In this document: positions 2,033 through 55,056 of the stretch, in pieces
How positions within the stretch are numbered: position 1 is the first letter of the stretch
Layout of the letters: the number at the start of each line of letters is the position of its first letter
Assembly: GCA_017630405.1 (NCBI GenBank)
Contig: JAGBVH010000007.1
Coordinates: 6,506-70,505 of the forward strand
Source of the DNA: Alphaproteobacteria bacterium
GTDB lineage: Bacteria; Pseudomonadota; Alphaproteobacteria; Rs-D84
Length of the DNA: 64,000 nucleotides
Direction: 5' to 3'
Position numbers and translations under genes: made by a program
Notes under the pieces: generated by a model
The model's database searches: none
Seen by the model: the letters and a program-made list of their open reading frames with translations, nothing else
Told to the model about the DNA's origin: nothing

Positions 2033-2641
2033 ATGAAAAAAGCGAAAAAATTGTCATTAAACGAAATGATCGAACAGGTTGATGCTGCCAAGAAAGTAAA
2101 TCCGTTGGATTTGTCTTCGGACCAGGACTTGTCAATCGCATTGATGAACTTGATTTCATTGGAAGAACACTTCTTTTTCAGTGGGGCCAAGACACAAAAG
2201 ACAAGTTTTTATGACCTGATTAATGTTGTGCGCAATATGCGTAAAGAATTAATGGAACGCATTGTTCAGAAGTCAACCGCAGAAAACGGTGAAGTTTGGT
2301 GTATTTCTAAACATTTGTTGGCGGCTTCTATGCGTTTGATGGAAGTTGGCACCAAGGCTTTGGGCGCAGGTAATACCAAAGATGCGTATGATATGTTTAA
2401 TCGCGCATACGACTTGTATTCTCTGTTCTGGGGATTGAACATGAATCTGATTGATACCACAGGTGTTCAGAAAATCGCACCAGAAGCATATGATGCGGCG
2501 GCTCGTGATAAAGAGTGCAGCATTGATATGGCGCAGAAAACGACAAAGAAATCCAAGGCTGCCAAAGCAGATACAGAAAAATCAACAGTTAAGCGTTTGG
2601 GGGCTTGGGTTAAAAATGCCGTTAACTGCTGCATTGAATAA
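2033..2641 (+). CDS. Hypothetical protein (202 aa, helical, Lys-rich C-terminus)
   Basis: Long ORF with RBS aaggaagg 6-12 nt upstream. It has no competing same-strand ORF and no family I recognise. Confidence 0.55.
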   Translation: MKKAKKLSLNEMIEQVDAAKKVNPLDLSSDQDLSIALMNLISLEEHFFFSGAKTQKTSFYDLINVVRNMRKELMERIVQKSTAENGEVWCISKHLLAASMRLMEVGTKALGAGNTKDAYDMFNRAYDLYSLFWGLNMNLIDTTGVQKIAPEAYDAAARDKECSIDMAQKTTKKSKAAKADTEKSTVKRLGAWVKNAVNCCIE

Positions 2642-2648
2642 TTTGGTA

Positions 2649-2678
2649 TTGATTCCAATTGTTCGAAAATGCTATAAT
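2649..2678 (+). promoter_or_regulatory. Sigma70-like promoter for the Cys-rich protein operon
   Basis: TTGATT (2649-2654), an 18 nt spacer, then TATAAT (2673-2678), about 15 nt upstream of the GTG start at 2693. Confidence 0.5.
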
Positions 2679-2692
2679 GTCATAAAGAGAGA

Positions 2693-5110
2693 GTGAAATT
2701 GAAACATCGCATTATTGATTTTCGTTTGTTAACAGCACTTTTTGCTACGCTGATGGCTTCGTCAGCAGTGGTTGCAGACCAGATGCCTAATCCACGCGGT
2801 GGCACAAATACTGTGGCGCGCGGCAATGCTTCAAGCGAGAAAGAACGCGTTGTGTCACGTGTTGCGGATAACACTGTCCATCGTGTGTCGAATGATGCGA
2901 CTGCCCGTGTGGCAAAAACTGTAAAACCTTCTACGACACGTTCGGTTAAGCGTCAAATGACAGCTATATCTAATCGACCAGATGTTGTGACCGCTCGCGT
3001 TGGATCAATAGGTGTGGTGCGCAGTGCGAATCCTGTCCGTAGCACAACAAGTAATGTGGCGCGCAGCGCAACGAATGTTTCTAATGTGTCGCGTGCGGCA
3101 ACTTCACGCGCGACTGCTGTGTTTAGTGATATTTCAAAAATTGGTGGCGGGTACGCAACATGTCGTGATGCCTATGCTACCTGTATGGACCAATTCTGCG
3201 CAAATGCAAATGATACTTATCGCCGTTGCTATTGCAGTCAAAAGTTCACAGAATTTCGTGATACAGAATTGGTATTGGATGAAGCCAAGAGATTGCTTTT
3301 ACAATTCCAAGATAATAATTTGAACGCTGTTGACAAGACCGCGGCCGAGGTTAATGCAATGTATACAGCAACCGTTGGCGAAGCGGCAATTAAAACTGAT
3401 GTTAGTGGCGCACAGTCTGTATTAAATGAAATTGGCGATTTGCTGTCGGGTAAAAAGGCTGTGTCCAAAGAAACATCGGCATCTGCGTTGGGATTGTTGG
3501 ATGTTGATTTTGGTATGGATATGGAAGATATCTGGTCTGGGGGCTCATCGTCTTCATCGATATTTGGTGGTAATGCTACAACTAATATGGCGGATCTTGA
3601 AGGCGCGGCACTGTACAAGGCTGTAAACACTCAATGTCTTGAGGTTGTGGCATCTGCTTGTGAAAACGATGCCGTGTTAAGTATGGCGACCAATTCATAT
3701 AATATTATGATTACACAGGATTGTAATGCCTATGAAAAGAAGGTGAATACTCAGCGCAAGGCCGTTGAAGATTCTGTGCGTCAGGCAGAAAAATATTTGC
3801 GCGAAGCACGTTTGGACGAATATCGCACACATAACAGTGCCGATGTTAATGAATGTGTGGCCAAGGTTCGTAACGCAATTACACAAGATACAGCATGTGG
3901 CACAAACTATGCACGCTGTTTGGATTATTCAGGTGTTTATATAAACTCTACAACTGGTGAACCTATTTATAGCCCTCGCCTGTTTAAATTGGTTGAGTTG
4001 ATTAAACTGGATGGTTCGGCAGATGTTATGGGCCAGAACGCAGACTTTAATAAATTCTTGGATTCTAAACGCATGTTTGCGACAACAGCATTGGATACTT
4101 GTCGTGATCAGGCAGATATTGTTTGGAACGAATTTAAGCGTAGCGCATTGATTGAAATTGCGCAGGCACAAGATGAAAAAATTGAACAAGTAAAAAATAC
4201 CTGTGTGTCAACAATGGCTGAATGCTATGATACGCAATCTGGTGCTTTAAAGGACTTTAGTGACCAAACAGCGGTTGCGGCTGGTGCTGTATCTGCGTAT
4301 GCAGCACGCCAAATGTGCGCTGACAAGGTTTTGACCTGTGCTGCATTGTATGGCGATACTTCAAATTGCAGATTTGATAATAATGGCAAGTTTACAGGCA
4401 ATCAGGGGTCCTGTGGATTAACAGCGTTGTTGAACTTTGTTGATACAGTTGACACAATCAAGATTAATGACAGTTGTGTTGCTGCGTTACAAGAAAACGC
4501 AAATGAAATATGTACCCCAACATCGGGGGATGGCGTTTATCCTTCGGCGTGCTTTAATAAGTCACAAACGGATATTGAAGGAATGGTAACCAATCGTGCC
4601 GAGCTTGTATGTAATATAGCGGATTTTGGGATTTTGGGTAAAGATATGGAGGCAACTATTAGCAGCACCAAAGACGCGATTGTTCAAAACATTAAGGACG
4701 ATATCGAATCCGCATTGATGGCTGAGTGCGAGGCGCAAAATGGTATTTGGTTCAGCCGCGATGTGGTTGGCGGTGAATCAGAAGAAATTGGCCTGTCGAT
4801 TTTGGAGCCAGAGGCATTGTTCTATACCAAACTGTTTGGTGGCTCGGTGCCAAGTAAGTTTACCGCCAATTCATCTGATGTAAAGCAAGCTTATGGTATC
4901 TGTGCGGAAAATTCAATGCGCTATGCGTGTATGAATCAGGATACAATGACCGGTGGTCATGGATATGCTAAATACGATGCCGCAACAAATAGTTGTGTGT
5001 TCACCAGCGAGTGGTACAAATGGCAGTGTGAAAATGTATTGAACGGCTATTTCGAAAATGAAGTATGTTATTGGAACGCAGAAAATGTTGTCGATGGGGG
5101 TAATGAATAA
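2693..5110 (+). CDS. Large secreted cysteine-rich protein, family member A (805 aa), with an Arg/Ser/Thr-rich N-terminal tract
   Basis: GTG start with RBS aagagagag. Signal peptide LLTALFATLMASSAVVA. Low-complexity tract (VARSATNVSNVSRAATSRATAV). Many Cys residues in conserved motifs are shared with the 34473-36947 product. Confidence 0.8.
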   Translation: MKLKHRIIDFRLLTALFATLMASSAVVADQMPNPRGGTNTVARGNASSEKERVVSRVADNTVHRVSNDATARVAKTVKPSTTRSVKRQMTAISNRPDVVTARVGSIGVVRSANPVRSTTSNVARSATNVSNVSRAATSRATAVFSDISKIGGGYATCRDAYATCMDQFCANANDTYRRCYCSQKFTEFRDTELVLDEAKRLLLQFQDNNLNAVDKTAAEVNAMYTATVGEAAIKTDVSGAQSVLNEIGDLLSGKKAVSKETSASALGLLDVDFGMDMEDIWSGGSSSSSIFGGNATTNMADLEGAALYKAVNTQCLEVVASACENDAVLSMATNSYNIMITQDCNAYEKKVNTQRKAVEDSVRQAEKYLREARLDEYRTHNSADVNECVAKVRNAITQDTACGTNYARCLDYSGVYINSTTGEPIYSPRLFKLVELIKLDGSADVMGQNADFNKFLDSKRMFATTALDTCRDQADIVWNEFKRSALIEIAQAQDEKIEQVKNTCVSTMAECYDTQSGALKDFSDQTAVAAGAVSAYAARQMCADKVLTCAALYGDTSNCRFDNNGKFTGNQGSCGLTALLNFVDTVDTIKINDSCVAALQENANEICTPTSGDGVYPSACFNKSQTDIEGMVTNRAELVCNIADFGILGKDMEATISSTKDAIVQNIKDDIESALMAECEAQNGIWFSRDVVGGESEEIGLSILEPEALFYTKLFGGSVPSKFTANSSDVKQAYGICAENSMRYACMNQDTMTGGHGYAKYDAATNSCVFTSEWYKWQCENVLNGYFENEVCYWNAENVVDGGNE

Positions 5111-18341: not shown

Positions 18342-19027
18342 TGAGATTTTTATTATTTGCTTTTATCTTGGCCGGTTGCAGTTGTGGCGCGCCACAATAT
18401 GCCGGCCATAATTATTTGGGTGCAAAATATATCAATTCGCCATTGGGCGAAGGTGTATTGCCCGATACAGACCCACTAATTCGTTTTGATGCATTTGACT
18501 GTACCACTTTTGTTGAAACAGTATTGGCGGACGGCGATGTAAAAAAACTTAATCAAATCAGATATAAAAACGGCACGATTGATTTTGTTTCACGCAATCA
18601 CTTCATAGAATCAGACTGGTTGGTCAATAATTCAAATCTGGTAGAAAATATTAGTTCTGAATTTGGCAAAACGGCTGTTCGGTATGTGAAAATAGACAAA
18701 AAGTCTTGGTTCAAAAAAACGCACAATATCGATACAGACTTTGAAACGCAAGATATTGCACTGGAGTATTTGCCCTATAATGCGTTTGATGATATCTCTG
18801 TATCCGAACCTATGATTGTGTTATTTGTTACTGACAACACAAAAATACATGATAAAATAGGCACAGACTTAGCCGTTGTGCATATGGGATTTCTGATGCC
18901 GAATGGTGTTTTGCGACATGCGTCTTCGGCACAAGGACGGGTTGTGGACGTGAACTTTAAGGAATACATAACACAGCGCAAACAAAACAAAAACAACATC
19001 GGTATCGCATTGGTGAAAATAAAATGA
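18341..19027 (+). CDS. Lipoprotein, DUF1460 / amidase-like family
   Basis: Lipobox MRFLLFAFILAGC. PLIRFDAFDCTTFVETVLA matches the DUF1460 core as I recall it. TGATG overlap with the upstream ORF. Confidence 0.55.
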   Translation: MRFLLFAFILAGCSCGAPQYAGHNYLGAKYINSPLGEGVLPDTDPLIRFDAFDCTTFVETVLADGDVKKLNQIRYKNGTIDFVSRNHFIESDWLVNNSNLVENISSEFGKTAVRYVKIDKKSWFKKTHNIDTDFETQDIALEYLPYNAFDDISVSEPMIVLFVTDNTKIHDKIGTDLAVVHMGFLMPNGVLRHASSAQGRVVDVNFKEYITQRKQNKNNIGIALVKIK

Positions 19028-20145
19028 ACGAAGAAAAAATTATTGTAATGGATATGGGTAATTTAAAGGGGGACGAATCTTTGGAACGCCCTACTTTGTG
19101 TCTTGGGATTGAATCTTCGTGCGATGAAACATCCGCAGCAATTGTTGATTCTAATCGCAACATATTGTCACATATCATTTATTCCCAGATTCCAGAACAT
19201 CAGAAATTTGGTGGCGTGGTTCCAGAATTGGCGGCGCGCGCACATATTTTGGCGATTGATGAAGTTATTAAACAAACCCTTGAACGCGCCGGTAAGACTA
19301 TTGTTGATATTGATGTTGTTGCTGCCACTGCTGGGCCTGGGTTAATAGGCGGTGTTTTGGTTGGCTGGATGGCCGCCACAGGTATCGCACACGCAACAGG
19401 CAAACCATTGGTCGCCGTTAATCATCTGGAAGGTCACGCACTTGTGCCGCGTCTTTGCGCGACGGTTGCTGACGGCACCAACGGTTCAACCGCTGTTGAG
19501 TTTCCATATTTATTGATGCTAGCATCGGGCGGACATTGTCAGATTCTGCTGGTGCGCGGAGTTGGTCAATACGAATTGATTGGTCAAACACTTGATGACA
19601 GTGCTGGCGAAGCATTTGATAAAGTTGCAAAAATGCTGGGACTTGGGTATCCTGGTGGCCCTGTTGTGGACAAGCGCGCCCAAGGCGGCAACCCAAAGGC
19701 ATTTAAGTTCCCGCGTCCATTATGCGACAAACCAGGGTGCGATTTTTCATTCAGCGGTATCAAGACCGCGGCCCGTACATTTTTAGATAAAAACCCTGCC
19801 CCACACAGCGAAGAATTTATAAACGACTTTTGCGCTTCGTTCCAATCATCGGTTGTAGACTGTATAATTAATCGCTTGGGCAACGCTATGCAGGACCAGC
19901 GCGTTATCAACGCTGCACCAAAAACATTAGTTGTTGCGGGTGGTGTGGCCAAAAACAGCGCGATACGCAGTGCGATGGAAAAACTGGCCGCTGATAACGG
20001 AATGATTTTTGCAGCACCGCCAATGAATCTGTGTACCGATAATGGTGCGATGATTGCGTGGGCAGGACTGGAAAATTATAAAATCGGCAATATTGTTAAG
20101 GAACCTATTGCACCACGCCCAAGATGGCCACTGACAGAATTATGA
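19024..20145 (+). CDS. tsaD: tRNA N6-adenosine threonylcarbamoyltransferase TsaD
   Basis: LGIESSCDETSAAIV...VNHLEGH...ASGGH...GYPGGP...GGVAKN. The conserved core starts about 25 aa after the ATGA-overlapped ATG, so the true start may be 19048 or 19054. Confidence 0.9.
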   Translation: MNEEKIIVMDMGNLKGDESLERPTLCLGIESSCDETSAAIVDSNRNILSHIIYSQIPEHQKFGGVVPELAARAHILAIDEVIKQTLERAGKTIVDIDVVAATAGPGLIGGVLVGWMAATGIAHATGKPLVAVNHLEGHALVPRLCATVADGTNGSTAVEFPYLLMLASGGHCQILLVRGVGQYELIGQTLDDSAGEAFDKVAKMLGLGYPGGPVVDKRAQGGNPKAFKFPRPLCDKPGCDFSFSGIKTAARTFLDKNPAPHSEEFINDFCASFQSSVVDCIINRLGNAMQDQRVINAAPKTLVVAGGVAKNSAIRSAMEKLAADNGMIFAAPPMNLCTDNGAMIAWAGLENYKIGNIVKEPIAPRPRWPLTEL

Positions 20146-20180
20146 TTGAACTGATTGCCCAGATATGATACTGTTATAGT

Positions 20181-20669
20181 ATGATACAGTCAAAGGATGA
20201 TTTTTATCGCGCTGCGACCAGCAAATTGCTGAAGCAGATTGACAGTATGAATATGACGGATGTCGATCGCCATCAGGCAAAGAAACTGGTTATGCTGTTC
20301 AGGAATCGTTTCAAGGATCCTGAAGTAAAAATGGCCACATTTGGGCCAGATTTGAATAATAATATATCTGCCTTCACTTATGATTCAGATGGTTTTTGTA
20401 AGGCATCTAGTTGTACATTTAGTGATATGTTGGGACCAAAAGATTGGCAACTGATGTACATAAACGATTTGTGGACCTTTGGACCACATCATTATTTGAT
20501 GCATATTCCAAGCAAGCAGGTATTTGATTTAACGGCCGACCAATACACCCATTCTGGCATAGAAATTCCTTATTATATGGGATATCCAGTGCGTCTTGAC
20601 CAAAACGAACGCAAAAGTGCAGAAAGATTTGCCGCAGTATTAAATATTAACAAGAAACAAAACGATTAA
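20181..20669 (+). CDS. Hypothetical protein (162 aa)
   Basis: Long ORF on the operon strand. No recognisable family. Confidence 0.45.
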   Translation: MIQSKDDFYRAATSKLLKQIDSMNMTDVDRHQAKKLVMLFRNRFKDPEVKMATFGPDLNNNISAFTYDSDGFCKASSCTFSDMLGPKDWQLMYINDLWTFGPHHYLMHIPSKQVFDLTADQYTHSGIEIPYYMGYPVRLDQNERKSAERFAAVLNINKKQND

Positions 20670-51660: not shown

Positions 51661-51689
51661 TTGCAATTTCCAGTCTAAAAGAGTATAAT
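51661..51689 (+). promoter_or_regulatory. Consensus sigma70 promoter of ssrA
   Basis: TTGCAA (51661-51666), a 17 nt spacer, then TATAAT (51684-51689). Confidence 0.7.
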
Positions 51690-51695
51690 TGATGG

Positions 51696-52037
51696 GCCAC
51701 GCGAGTGGTGATGATTCTGAAGCCTTTGTGCAATAGTCATTTTGGACTGGGGGGCGGTACCCCACAGCTCCACCATTATTTGATATGATTTTTGGTCGTA
51801 TTTGATTATGGGGCTGACATAGATTCGACAGATGATGAAAGACAAAATGGTTGAATCCGACATGGTGTCGTTAAAAACCAACTAAAAACTGAATGGCGAT
51901 AGAATCGCTGCGAACGACAATGTTCGCCTTGCAATGGCTGCCTAATATGGCGTTGAATACGGTTGGCGATTGTTAGCCGTGTTCGTTTAAGCAATTGCGG
52001 GGTTTGCCGGTACCTGGCACCAGAAATCCGGCGTTTT
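51696..52037 (+). ncRNA. ssrA: Circularly permuted (two-piece) tmRNA gene: acceptor piece to 51775 (..CAGCTCCACCA), spacer, then coding piece from 51810 (GGGGCTGA..)
   Basis: The 3' acceptor strand cagctcc-a-cca (51765-51775) lies upstream of the 5' strand ggggctg (51810-51816). Together they form a 7 bp acceptor with G3-U70. agattcgac D-analogue. Tag ORF GCG AAC GAC AAT GTT CGC CTT GCA ATG GCT GCC TAA (51910-51945) encodes ANDNVRLAMAA. Terminator hairpin at 52006-52037. Confidence 0.85.
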
Positions 52038-52067: not shown

Positions 52068-52289
52068 ATGTTTGGAAAAATTAAAAAAGTATTCTTTACG
52101 GGTGTATTCGGTGTTTTGTACATCACTTTTATCGCACAGTTGGTTTATGTTTTAGGCTGGGTTGATGGTGAAACAAAGCTGATTGCGATGGGTGCATTGA
52201 TGTTGGAATGGTTAGTTCTGATTGCAGCACGCTATCTGTCAAAGCGTTCAAGCAACAGCGCGCAACATAACAACTTCCGCCGCCGTTAA
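52068..52289 (+). CDS. Small two-TM membrane protein (73 aa)
   Basis: RBS aaggaaagg. Two hydrophobic segments. Followed by a strong terminator. Confidence 0.5.
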   Translation: MFGKIKKVFFTGVFGVLYITFIAQLVYVLGWVDGETKLIAMGALMLEWLVLIAARYLSKRSSNSAQHNNFRRR

Positions 52290-52297
52290 AAAAATCA

Positions 52298-52322
52298 ATC
52301 CCCCAAATTGGGGGATTTTTTT
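52298..52322 (+). terminator. Intrinsic terminator
   Basis: Stem atccccc, loop aaatt, stem gggggat, followed by TTTTTT. Confidence 0.8.
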
Positions 52323-52382
52323 CAAGACATAGGTTTTCATAGTTCTTGAAAATTATATTATTTATATTATATTTACTGGGCT

Positions 52383-54143
52383 ATGAAACAATATATTTTA
52401 CCACTTCGCGATTTAGTCGTACATCCGTCACTGACAGTGCCGGTGTATATTGATAATCCTGTATCTGTCGCCTGTATCGAGGCTGCCATGAACGCGGACC
52501 GCCGTGTGGTGCTGGTTCCACAGCACAGTTGGGCGTATCCTGCGACCGTTGAAGACATATACTACATTGGAACAATTGGCGATATTGTTCAGGTTCTGCG
52601 TATGCCTGATGGGGCCGTACATGCGATTGTAAAAACGACTGGCGTTGTGGCACTTAATGACACGACTGTTCAAAACGGAATCTTTACCGCAGATATCAAC
52701 CCGATTGAAATCGCAGACGACATGGAAAGCGAGACAACCATTGCTTTGCGCGATAAAATCGCAGACTGCCTGCAGACAATTGCTGCTAGTATTCGCAAGT
52801 TCAAAATGGAAAAACTGCGTAATGTTATCCAGAACTATCCCCTGCCCGCGTTTGTGGATTCTGTAGTTGAAATGGCCGACATCGACACAGACAATGCACT
52901 TAAGATTTTGTGTGCCCCTTCGTGGCAGGACAAAATGATTCTGTTGCTGGAACAGGTAAAATTACTTAGCGAAACATTTAAAATCGAAGATTCTATTAAC
53001 CGCCGTATTCATCAGCAAATGGAAAACGGCCGGCGCGAGGCTATATTACAAGAAAAAATGCGCGCCATCCAAAAGGAAATGGGCGAAGATTCTGAAGAAA
53101 TGGATTCGGAAAATATGCGAAAAAAGATTCAGAAGTCCGCTATGCCAACCGAGGCTAAAGAAAAAGCAATGAGCGAGTGGAAGCGTATGCGCTCTATGTC
53201 ACCTATGTCCAACGAAGGTGGATTGCTTAAAACATATTTGGACGAATTGCTGTCTATGCCTTGGGACAAATCTGATAATACGCCGATTGATTTGAATAAT
53301 GCGCGTGAAATTTTGGATTCCCAACATTCTGGGATGCGTGGGGTCAAAGAACGCATACTGGAACATATTGCGGTGATGAAAAAGACTGGCGGCAATCAGG
53401 GCACTATTCTGTGCTTTGTTGGTGCGCCAGGTGTTGGGAAAACATCGCTGGGTAAATCAATCGCTGCGGCATTGGGCCGAAAATATCAACGCATTTCATT
53501 GGGTGGCATATCAGACGAGGCGCACTTCCGCGGCCATCGCAAAACATATATCGGCGCACAAACTGGGCGTATTATGGATGCGCTTAAACGCTGTAAGTCA
53601 AACAATCCCGTCATTGTTCTTGATGAAATTGATAAAATGGGACGTGATTGGCGCGGAGACCCTGAATCTGCGCTGTTGGAAATTTTGGATCCAGAACAGA
53701 ACAAGACTTTCCGCGATCATTATCTGGAAGTGGATTTTGACCTGTCCAAGGTTATGTTTATCGCGACCGCAAACAGCCTTAACCTGTCTAACGCTTTAAA
53801 AGACCGTATGGAAATTATCGAAATTCCTGGTTATTCTATGGACGACAAAGTTCAAATTGCACGCGAACATTTGATTGGACGCGCAGCACGCGACACGGGC
53901 TGGAATACTGACGACATTATTATTTCCGATGATGCGTTGCGACACATTATTCAAAAATATACCTCGGAACAAGGTGTGCGCGAAGTTCAGCGCGAACTGA
54001 CTGCTATTTTGCGCCGCGCTTTGTTGGAAAATAACTGCGTGGACACAAAAACAGAATTTACAAATGAAAAAATTGACCAGTTGTTGTCTGTGCGTCAATC
54101 TGCTGGATTTTCCAAAAAAATAGGATTTGGGGTGCACGCATAA
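52383..54143 (+). CDS. lon: Lon N-terminal plus AAA+ domains without the proteolytic domain (586 aa)
   Basis: ILPLRDLVVHPSLTVPVYI (Lon N-domain), GAPGVGKTS (Walker A), VIVLDEIDKM (Walker B) and EQGVREVQRE (sensor 2). The ORF stops at ..SKKIGFGVHA, where the Ser-Lys protease domain would begin. Confidence 0.85.
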   Translation: MKQYILPLRDLVVHPSLTVPVYIDNPVSVACIEAAMNADRRVVLVPQHSWAYPATVEDIYYIGTIGDIVQVLRMPDGAVHAIVKTTGVVALNDTTVQNGIFTADINPIEIADDMESETTIALRDKIADCLQTIAASIRKFKMEKLRNVIQNYPLPAFVDSVVEMADIDTDNALKILCAPSWQDKMILLLEQVKLLSETFKIEDSINRRIHQQMENGRREAILQEKMRAIQKEMGEDSEEMDSENMRKKIQKSAMPTEAKEKAMSEWKRMRSMSPMSNEGGLLKTYLDELLSMPWDKSDNTPIDLNNAREILDSQHSGMRGVKERILEHIAVMKKTGGNQGTILCFVGAPGVGKTSLGKSIAAALGRKYQRISLGGISDEAHFRGHRKTYIGAQTGRIMDALKRCKSNNPVIVLDEIDKMGRDWRGDPESALLEILDPEQNKTFRDHYLEVDFDLSKVMFIATANSLNLSNALKDRMEIIEIPGYSMDDKVQIAREHLIGRAARDTGWNTDDIIISDDALRHIIQKYTSEQGVREVQRELTAILRRALLENNCVDTKTEFTNEKIDQLLSVRQSAGFSKKIGFGVHA

Positions 54144-54520
54144 TGGTAAAAACAAAAAACTTTGTTTTGAACGGTAAAAATGTTGCGATTCCAAACGACA
54201 AGAAATTGTTGGAACAAATCGAACGATTCCAAAAGATTGAACAATATGCGCGCGCACAGGAAAAACTGACCATAAAAACAGCCGAACAACAATCAAGAAA
54301 CCATCCAGATAAACGCGATTTTATTATCCAAGCAGATACTGACAAATATCAAATAACTGCTATTAACTCTGCGGTTCCAACTTCACTGTTGCTGCTGCGC
54401 GGGGATTCTTGGGATACTATGATACAGGACAAAGCTGATAATTCTGTTGTGATAGAAGATGGTGCAGTTGCTGGATTGTACTTTGAACTGTTGAATCAAT
54501 TAAAGGAAATACATAAATGA
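54143..54520 (+). CDS. Hypothetical protein (125 aa) occupying the position of the missing Lon protease domain
   Basis: TAATG overlap with the lon stop and ATGA overlap with tsaB. No similarity to the Lon protease domain. Confidence 0.5.
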   Translation: MVKTKNFVLNGKNVAIPNDKKLLEQIERFQKIEQYARAQEKLTIKTAEQQSRNHPDKRDFIIQADTDKYQITAINSAVPTSLLLLRGDSWDTMIQDKADNSVVIEDGAVAGLYFELLNQLKEIHK

Positions 54521-55056
54521 TTCTGATTATCAATACTTCGGGCGGGAATTTGGAATTTGTATTGGATGGACAATACAAATCTGTTGCTGTGGAAAAACAG
54601 TCTGTTGCCCTGCCTGCAGAATGTGAAAAGTTTATTACCGAGTGCGGCACAAAATGGTCCGACATTGATGCAATTGGTGTGGTTGTAGGACCAGGTAGTT
54701 TTACTGGCATTCGCCTTGGCATCGCATATGCCAAAGGAATTGCAATGGGGCTGAATATACCTGTGGTTGGAATTAGTTTGTTTGATTTATATTTGGCCGC
54801 CACACCAGATGCTTTTGTTGCGATTGATTCTGGTCGCGGCGATTTCTTTGTAGCCGCAAATGGATTAGCACCACAAACAATGGAAATAGAAGAATTAGAG
54901 ACAAAACAAATGGAATGGCCACGCACCGTTGGGCACAGACCTTTTGATTTGAGGCTGGGGGTAAATATCGTAAAAGAAAAAATAGCATCTGGGGATTTGG
55001 CGCCTGTTGTGCCAATGTATTTACGCCCCAGTTATGCCGAGCAAAACAAAAAATAA
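54517..55056 (+). CDS. tsaB: tRNA threonylcarbamoyladenosine biosynthesis protein TsaB
   Basis: ILIINTSGG...IDAIGVVVGPGSFTGIRLGIAYAKGIAMGLNIPVVGIS. Confidence 0.85.
   Translation: MILIINTSGGNLEFVLDGQYKSVAVEKQSVALPAECEKFITECGTKWSDIDAIGVVVGPGSFTGIRLGIAYAKGIAMGLNIPVVGISLFDLYLAATPDAFVAIDSGRGDFFVAANGLAPQTMEIEELETKQMEWPRTVGHRPFDLRLGVNIVKEKIASGDLAPVVPMYLRPSYAEQNKK

Follow-up and report, generated by a model that had tools for sequence, protein, structure and literature searches.

An IGF-tailed, protease-less Lon of Candidatus Enterousia as a candidate unfoldase partner of ClpP

The DNA analyzed here, which we call the window, is a 64,000-nucleotide (nt) stretch of contig JAGBVH010000007.1 (assembly GCA_017630405.1) from Candidatus Enterousia, which GTDB places in Rs-D84, the name of both its order and its family. 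These gut-dwelling Alphaproteobacteria have small genomes, about 1 Mb in size (PMC12306168). On the plus strand at positions 52383 to 54143, the window carries a gene that we name lon-deltaP, which encodes a 586-amino-acid (aa) AAA+ ATPase that is derived from LonA and lacks the S16 protease domain. This assignment draws on the open reading frame (ORF), on Pfam and NCBIfam matches, on alignment to the Escherichia coli Lon structure 6u5z, and on the ratio of nonsynonymous to synonymous substitution rates (dN/dS). Read from the ORF, the product ends in ..LSVRQSAGFSKKIGFGVHA. It consists of the Lon N-terminal substrate-binding domain (residues 5 to 191, positions 52395 to 52955; PF02190 LON_substr_bdg, E 1.3e-24), the AAA+ large subdomain (residues 343 to 479, positions 53409 to 53819; PF00004, E 2.9e-22), and the Lon lid, which is the small AAA+ subdomain (residues 505 to 549, positions 53895 to 54029; PF22667 Lon_lid, E 2.7e-12). 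Pfam gave no match to Lon_C (PF05362, the Ser-Lys S16 peptidase) in the 586-aa protein. The lon equivalog profile TIGR00763 was covered from profile position 2 to 566 of 795, at 541.2 bits and under its cut-off of 608.05 bits, and residues 13 to 557 of E. coli Lon (6u5z) aligned with residues 5 to 548 of the query (E 2e-128). Conserved with respect to 6u5z were the Walker A motif (G347 to S355), pore loop 1 (Y389-I390, within TYIG), the Walker B motif (D414-E415), sensor 1 (N464), the arginine finger (R475), and, within the lid, the sensor 2 arginine (R533). The motor motif residues were invariant in a 33-sequence alignment that included this clade of short Lons, the second clade described below, and full-length Lons. 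A preliminary description made from the letters of the window had read the gene as a Lon N-domain and AAA+ module without a protease domain, and all three comparisons agree with it.

The genome from which the window comes is a metagenome-assembled genome (MAG) of 1.05 Mb in 30 contigs, estimated to be 97.8% complete. It holds a single Lon-like gene, lon-deltaP. Lon_C was absent from every genome searched, namely, this one, 24 others of the same genus, and representatives of 12 further genera that carry the short gene. The closed 958,618-bp genome of a relative (OZ007020.1) gave no Lon_C match even at E ≤ 1. Since Lon_C is missing from the protein, from its genome, from the 24 same-genus genomes, and from the closed relative, lon-deltaP is a LonA descendant and not a Lon protease, and the earlier suggestion that a Lon protease domain is supplied in trans is not borne out.

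The short gene is widespread. Its frame of 585 to 598 aa was shared by 23 of the 24 same-genus genomes, at 69 to 79% identity and in open frames of 586 to 619 aa. Of 301 genomes sampled from the order, 271 belong to the Rs-D84 family, and 262 of these gave a match; public genomes yielded 233 hits. A collection of 5.8 billion proteins contained hundreds of clusters of 585 to 597 aa that lack PF05362, which NCBI names just "AAA family ATPase," and a protein identical to that of the window has been recorded from 6 contigs. One contig, JAIDWS010000009.1, carries two short-lon copies with equal search scores about 18.7 kb apart (G137:C38:81-1835 and 18831-20585). They lie near both ends of the 24-kb contig, and a repeat introduced in assembly, or an over-circularized contig, is a more probable cause than a true duplication.

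The gene also bears the mark of selection. The median dN/dS was 0.078 (range, 0.019 to 0.163; Nei-Gojobori method, 153 unsaturated pairs). The ratio of nonsynonymous to synonymous differences per site (pN/pS) indicated that the AAA+ core is under the tightest constraint (0.07 across residues 301 to 500) and the N-domain under the loosest (0.26). At the sequence level, these data show that strong purifying selection acts on the N-domain, the AAA+ module, and the lid, and that the ATPase and pore-loop motifs are all intact. This finding, together with the same frame being kept across genera, supports the earlier view of a gene that was cleanly remodeled and is not decaying. Gene decay is common in this reduced genome of about 1 Mb, whose MAG is split into 30 contigs, so that three other readings had to be considered: that the gene is a pseudogene, that it was truncated recently, or that its short frame is an artifact of assembly or frameshift. 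Each of these is nevertheless very improbable given the low dN/dS and the presence of the same frame in hundreds of independent assemblies, one of them a closed long-read genome. In addition, the tsaB gene starts no more than 31 nt from the lon stop codon in about 43 of 97 loci, and an endosymbiont lon that does appear to be truly decaying (P0216, described below) retains a separate Lon_C fragment.

The loss of the protease domain was placed on a maximum-likelihood tree of 67 Lons, built from only those alignment columns that extend up to the lid. The short alphaproteobacterial Lons formed one clade (Shimodaira-Hasegawa-like approximate likelihood ratio test support, 100) nested among full-length Lons of Rs-D84. 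The short gene occurs in 14 Rs-D84 genera, and the copies of the other genera are 53 to 72% identical to that of the window. Three further Rs-D84 genera (g15, g17, and g24) retain Lon_C, with full-length frames of 769 to 808 aa recovered in g15 and g17, and Lon is full-length in each of the order's five other families. In 97 of 99 loci of the Enterousia clade, tsaB follows lon, and the full-length lon of the sister genus g15 also adjoins tsaB. The nesting of the clade and the lon-tsaB locus shared with full-length g15 indicate that a protease segment of about 600 bp (about 200 codons) was deleted in place. As judged from these gene comparisons, lon-deltaP is shown to be the lon orthologue, with its protease segment lost in situ in one ancestor of at least 14 Rs-D84 genera. 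The preliminary description had allowed for a recent truncation, which does not fit a loss common to 14 genera whose Lon identity falls to 53%. Its placement of the point where the protease domain of E. coli Lon begins was about right: past the junction, full-length relatives continue as ..VRKYDFG....D.[VI]G[VI].NGL[AS]W. The placement of the short tail against full-length Lons by MAFFT was unreliable, and the junction was read by eye.

Immediately downstream lies an ORF of 125 aa (positions 54143 to 54520, plus strand), followed by tsaB (54517 to 55056, plus strand; PF00814), the conserved neighbor of lon. The TAA stop codon of lon (54141 to 54143) overlaps the ATG of the 125-aa ORF (54143 to 54145) as TAATG, and the end of that ORF overlaps the start of tsaB at 54517 as ATGA, as had been described. 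This translational coupling on both sides would favor reading the ORF as a diverged protease domain or as an obligate partner of the short Lon. Both proposals are scarcely credible in light of the other data. Pfam found no Lon_C in the 125-aa product, and an hhalign comparison with Lon_C taken from the nearest full-length Lon returned a probability of 0.09%. The AlphaFold2 model of the protein was confident (predicted local distance difference test [pLDDT], 90) and comprised two strands, a helix, five strands, and a helix; Foldseek gave no Protein Data Bank match below E 0.1 and none that was Lon-like. Relatives of the ORF were present in just 5 of 98 other loci checked. About 50 loci have a variable ORF of about 100 to 125 aa wedged between lon and tsaB, and in the roughly 43 closely spaced loci, where tsaB starts at -3 to +31 nt from the lon stop, there is no ORF between them. 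The 125-aa ORF is therefore an accessory variable cassette that lies outside the Lon system and is unrelated to Lon_C, as had been supposed at the outset; it is not a conserved partner.

What the short Lons do share is the end of the protein. In the AlphaFold2 model of lon-deltaP (mean pLDDT, 78.9), a final helix at residues 561 to 574 closes the lid, and residues 573 to 586 (SAGFSKKIGFGVHA; positions 54099 to 54140, plus strand) have pLDDT values below 50. The tail is thus predicted to be a flexible, disordered extension. The last 11 residues vary except for one motif: the tripeptide I580-G581-F582 (positions 54120 to 54128, plus strand) was unchanged in all 89 of the distinct Enterousia sequences, and K578 and [KR]579 were almost fixed in the same set. 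The peptide [KR][KR]IGF, followed by 3 to 9 variable residues, also occurs in every one of the 13 other short-Lon genera. Among divergent Rs-D84 members found in the protein search, P0121 ends in ..GRKIGFRTTSVRI and P0122 ends in ..GKKIGFSERF, with tsaB next. As a background, [ILVM]GF occurs within the last 15 residues of 1.0% of the ORFs of at least 150 aa in this genome, and [ILVM]GF with a preceding basic residue occurs within the last 16 residues of 0.46% of them. One 519-aa ORF of the same genome, which has an N-terminal signal-like sequence, ends in ..NGKNKKIGFVK and so carries the KKIGF of the Lon tail; because this ORF looks secreted, the likeness is probably due to chance. On the strength of its invariance and of its match to the ClpX loop, the IGF tripeptide of lon-deltaP is a candidate ClpP-docking motif.

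A second clade of protease-less Lons, from another phylum, was recovered by an exhaustive HMMER search over 1.84 billion representative proteins. P0203 is a Bacteroidales Lon of 615 aa that is 38% identical to that of the window. P0271 to P0274 (626 to 627 aa, without PF05362) are 61 to 66% identical to P0203 and form one clade with it (support, 100), nested inside full-length Lons of the Muribaculaceae type. The tree therefore requires at least two independent losses of the protease domain. Past the lon stop, the end of a convergent gene is reached after 146 nt in P0203 and after 20 nt in P0274, which leaves no space for Lon_C on these contigs, and two small ORFs upstream of the Bacteroidales short lon gave no Pfam ClpP match. 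Tails of the P0203 clade read [RK]R[TV]FG[RH]-VGF-S plus 3 to 4 variable residues, and the docking loops of Muribaculaceae ClpX read NSHV-VGF-TTD.

Other short Lons from the search were rejected as clean losses. P0213 is cut by a contig end; P0140, P0161, and P0163 look frameshifted; and P0191, P0211, and P0259 end within the protease domain. P0216 (ENA ERZ26051663 contig_3, positions 2501 to 4812) was set aside because its lon is split and the Lon_C piece remains. It comes from an AT-rich, endosymbiont-like genome with a tig-clpP-clpX-lon locus, and its lon consists of a 577-aa ORF for the N-domain and AAA+ module plus a separate 156-aa Lon_C fragment, so that the gene is either decaying or in two pieces. 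The Lon ORFs of P0216 and lon-deltaP both end near the junction of the AAA+ module and the protease domain. In P0216, however, a Lon_C fragment follows and there is no hydrophobic-G-F tail, whereas the deletion in lon-deltaP is clean and ancient and is accompanied by a conserved motif.

ClpP is available in these organisms. In the genome of the window, a clpP-clpX operon lies at C19:33586-35457, with clpP at C19:33586-34167 (248.7 bits), and the encoded ClpP carries the Ser, His, and Asp motifs. Among 121 genomes of the Rs-D84 family with a completeness of 90% or more, ClpP was found in 120. ClpX and ClpA dock in hydrophobic sites of ClpP by means of their IGF loops, whose flexibility tolerates the 6:7 mismatch (PMC9035409). 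The docking loop of the genome's own ClpX reads ERRG-IGF-GAHV, compared to SKK-IGF-GVHA in the Lon tail, and the ClpX tripeptide was IGF in all 12 of the short-Lon Rs-D84 genomes read. With IGF paired to IGF in Rs-D84 and VGF paired to VGF in Bacteroidales, the Lon tail of each clade bears the ClpX tripeptide of its lineage. The residue after the tripeptide is also similar between the Lon tail and ClpX, being G and G in Rs-D84 and S and T in Bacteroidales. The ClpX docking tripeptide varies inside the Rs-D84 family, reading LGF in g15, MGF in g17, and VGF in g24, the genera that keep full-length Lon; in other families of the order it is IGF or MGF. No HslV, proteasome family protein, or ClpA was found in this genome. 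HslV and ClpA were accordingly rejected as partners, and the sole two-ring Clp is ClpB-like, with a middle domain and without a docking loop. This Clp/Hsp100 protein (C22:2224-4305; 693-aa frame) covers only positions 154 to 733 of the ClpA profile and has a ClpB-type coiled-coil middle domain; it is a ClpB-like disaggregase from which the Clp_N N-terminal domain is apparently missing.

In solved LonA structures, the protease domain sits under the exit face of the motor ring. We propose, with slightly better than even confidence and on the evidence of sequence comparison, that lon-deltaP encodes a Lon unfoldase that has been rewired to feed ClpP through its IGF tail. The protein would still form a hexameric, ATP-driven unfoldase and translocase, and its flexible tails would leave the lid where the protease domain was formerly attached, that is, on the substrate-exit face of the ring. 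The [KR][KR]-IGF of each tail would dock in the hydrophobic pockets of the ClpP heptamer in the manner of the ClpX IGF loops. The Lon N-domain would pick the substrates, which ClpP would degrade once they had been threaded into it, and a one-piece protease would become a two-piece protease that shares ClpP with ClpX. The invariant tail makes ClpP the likely candidate for a protease supplied in trans. The broader proposal, a natural Lon-ClpP hybrid protease whose peptidase partner was switched independently in Rs-D84/Enterousia and in a Bacteroidales lineage, we would put at an even chance. The general reading of the preliminary description, a cleanly remodeled, protease-less Lon unfoldase, thus stands; recency and a Lon_C domain in trans fell away, and the invariant IGF tail had been missed.

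Several points weigh against ClpP docking. Every step past a functional ATPase would hang on a three-residue motif, and IGF is the commonest ClpX tripeptide in the order, so that the match of IGF to IGF alone carries little weight. Full-length relatives have [VI]G[VI] at the same place, so that in the alphaproteobacterial tail I-G may be a remnant of the strand that opened the protease domain, in which case F alone would be new. The IGF lies just about 6 to 9 residues past the last ordered helix, a shorter tether than the ClpX IGF loop, and the C termini of the lids point toward the ring periphery. This geometry puts in doubt both the reach of the tails and their tolerance of the 6:7 mismatch. 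LonA hexamers are held together partly by the protease ring, and lon-deltaP would have to assemble without it. The Bacteroidales clade consists of five short metagenomic contigs, and the ClpX compared with it is that of Muribaculaceae and not that of the contigs themselves.

These points bear on a possible, though less probable, alternative in which the Lon-derived protein acts alone, as an unfoldase, a chaperone, or a DNA-binding ATPase, and no peptidase ever joins it. Substrates would be remodeled or held, as by ClpX alone, and the tail would have another use, for example in ring assembly, autoregulation, or adaptor binding. Chaperone-like activity has been reported for proteolytically inactive Lon, and the intact ATPase and pore loops, which are under selection, would suit such a role, as would an ancestral I-G in the tail; the Lon-ClpP complex, for its part, is one that we infer from sequence. 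The stand-alone alternative nevertheless leaves unexplained two independently arisen protein ends of the form basic-hydrophobic-G-F-small, each of which matches the ClpX tripeptide of its own lineage, when such a tail has a background rate of 0.46%.

It is unlikely that the tail docks on a partner other than ClpP, such as FtsH, an unrecognized peptidase, or an adaptor. The motif is short, the genome contains many unannotated genes, and one of its proteins (309 aa, contig C25) is a weak second match to the ClpP fold at 29 bits, all of which would leave room for another receptor. However, neither Lon_C nor HslV was found in this genome, no conserved neighbor besides tsaB was seen, and the pockets of ClpP are the only established receptor for hydrophobic-G-F motifs on AAA+ unfoldases (PMC9035409).

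Upstream of lon-deltaP, ARAGORN identified a two-piece (permuted) transfer-messenger RNA (tmRNA) with the tag AANDNVRLAMAA at positions 51682 to 52036 on the plus strand. About 350 nt separate it from lon, which lies downstream and is read from the plus strand as well. Of 10 relatives sampled, 5 showed this layout; the tmRNA was inverted or more distant in 2, and none was found nearby in 3. Between the tmRNA and lon lies a small ORF for a hydrophobic protein of 73 aa (MFGKIKKVFFTGVFGVLYITFIAQLVYVLGW..) at positions 52068 to 52289 (plus strand), with a strong hairpin terminator after it. This terminator-like hairpin (positions 52297 to 52317), found by consensus scan only, is bidirectional and marks the boundary between the small ORF and lon. 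The same kind of scan found a promoter-like site, TTGAAA-16-TATATT, at positions 52346 to 52373 (plus strand; 10 of 12 consensus matches). It ends just 10 nt before the lon ATG, and the lon mRNA may therefore lack a leader or carry only a very short one.

Compared to known systems, lon-deltaP is closest to LonA (E. coli Lon, 6u5z; TIGR00763; MEROPS S16), which is its direct evolutionary source and which it matches colinearly from the N-domain through the AAA+ module to the lid. It differs in lacking the entire Ser-Lys peptidase domain and in ending in a disordered IGF tail. With ClpX, ClpA, and ClpC, which carry IGF, IGL, or VGF loops, it has in common a motif on a flexible element and a genome that encodes ClpP, and it shares the tripeptide and its flanks with its own ClpX (G-IGF-GA in ClpX and K-IGF-GV in Lon). 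In lon-deltaP, however, the small AAA+ subdomain carries the motif on its C-terminal tail, whereas the Clp motif belongs to a large-subdomain loop; moreover, lon-deltaP has a motor of the Lon type, a Lon N-domain replaces the zinc finger or Clp_N domain, and docking is putative. A further parallel comes from the HbYX tails of PAN, Rpt, Mpa, and Cdc48, which dock on the 20S proteasome, and from the C terminus of HslU, which docks on HslV. The tails of HslU are the subject of PMC4106860. By analogy, the design would be the same, with a short C-terminal peptide of the ATPase entering pockets of a separate peptidase ring, but the motif and the receptor are different, and no protein of the proteasome/HslV family was found in this genome. 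Full-text searching of the literature gave no account of a protease-less LonA or of a Lon-ClpP pairing, and the Enterousia papers found contain no mention of Lon or ClpP.

For hundreds of gut MAGs in which the gene is labeled "AAA family ATPase," these data bear on annotation, since both "Lon present" and "Lon absent" mislead in reconstructions of the metabolism and proteostasis of Enterousia. The proposal can be tested with recombinant proteins even though the host organisms are uncultured. AAA+ proteases are usually divided into fused enzymes (Lon and FtsH) and two-piece enzymes (ClpXP, ClpAP, HslUV, and the proteasome). If the proposal is true, a Lon motor that gave up its built-in peptidase in favor of ClpP would be a natural crossing of this divide, and one short tail peptide would have been enough to give an unfoldase a new partner. 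ClpP would then gain a third class of unfoldase partner, of the Lon type, and with it a Lon-type substrate selector.

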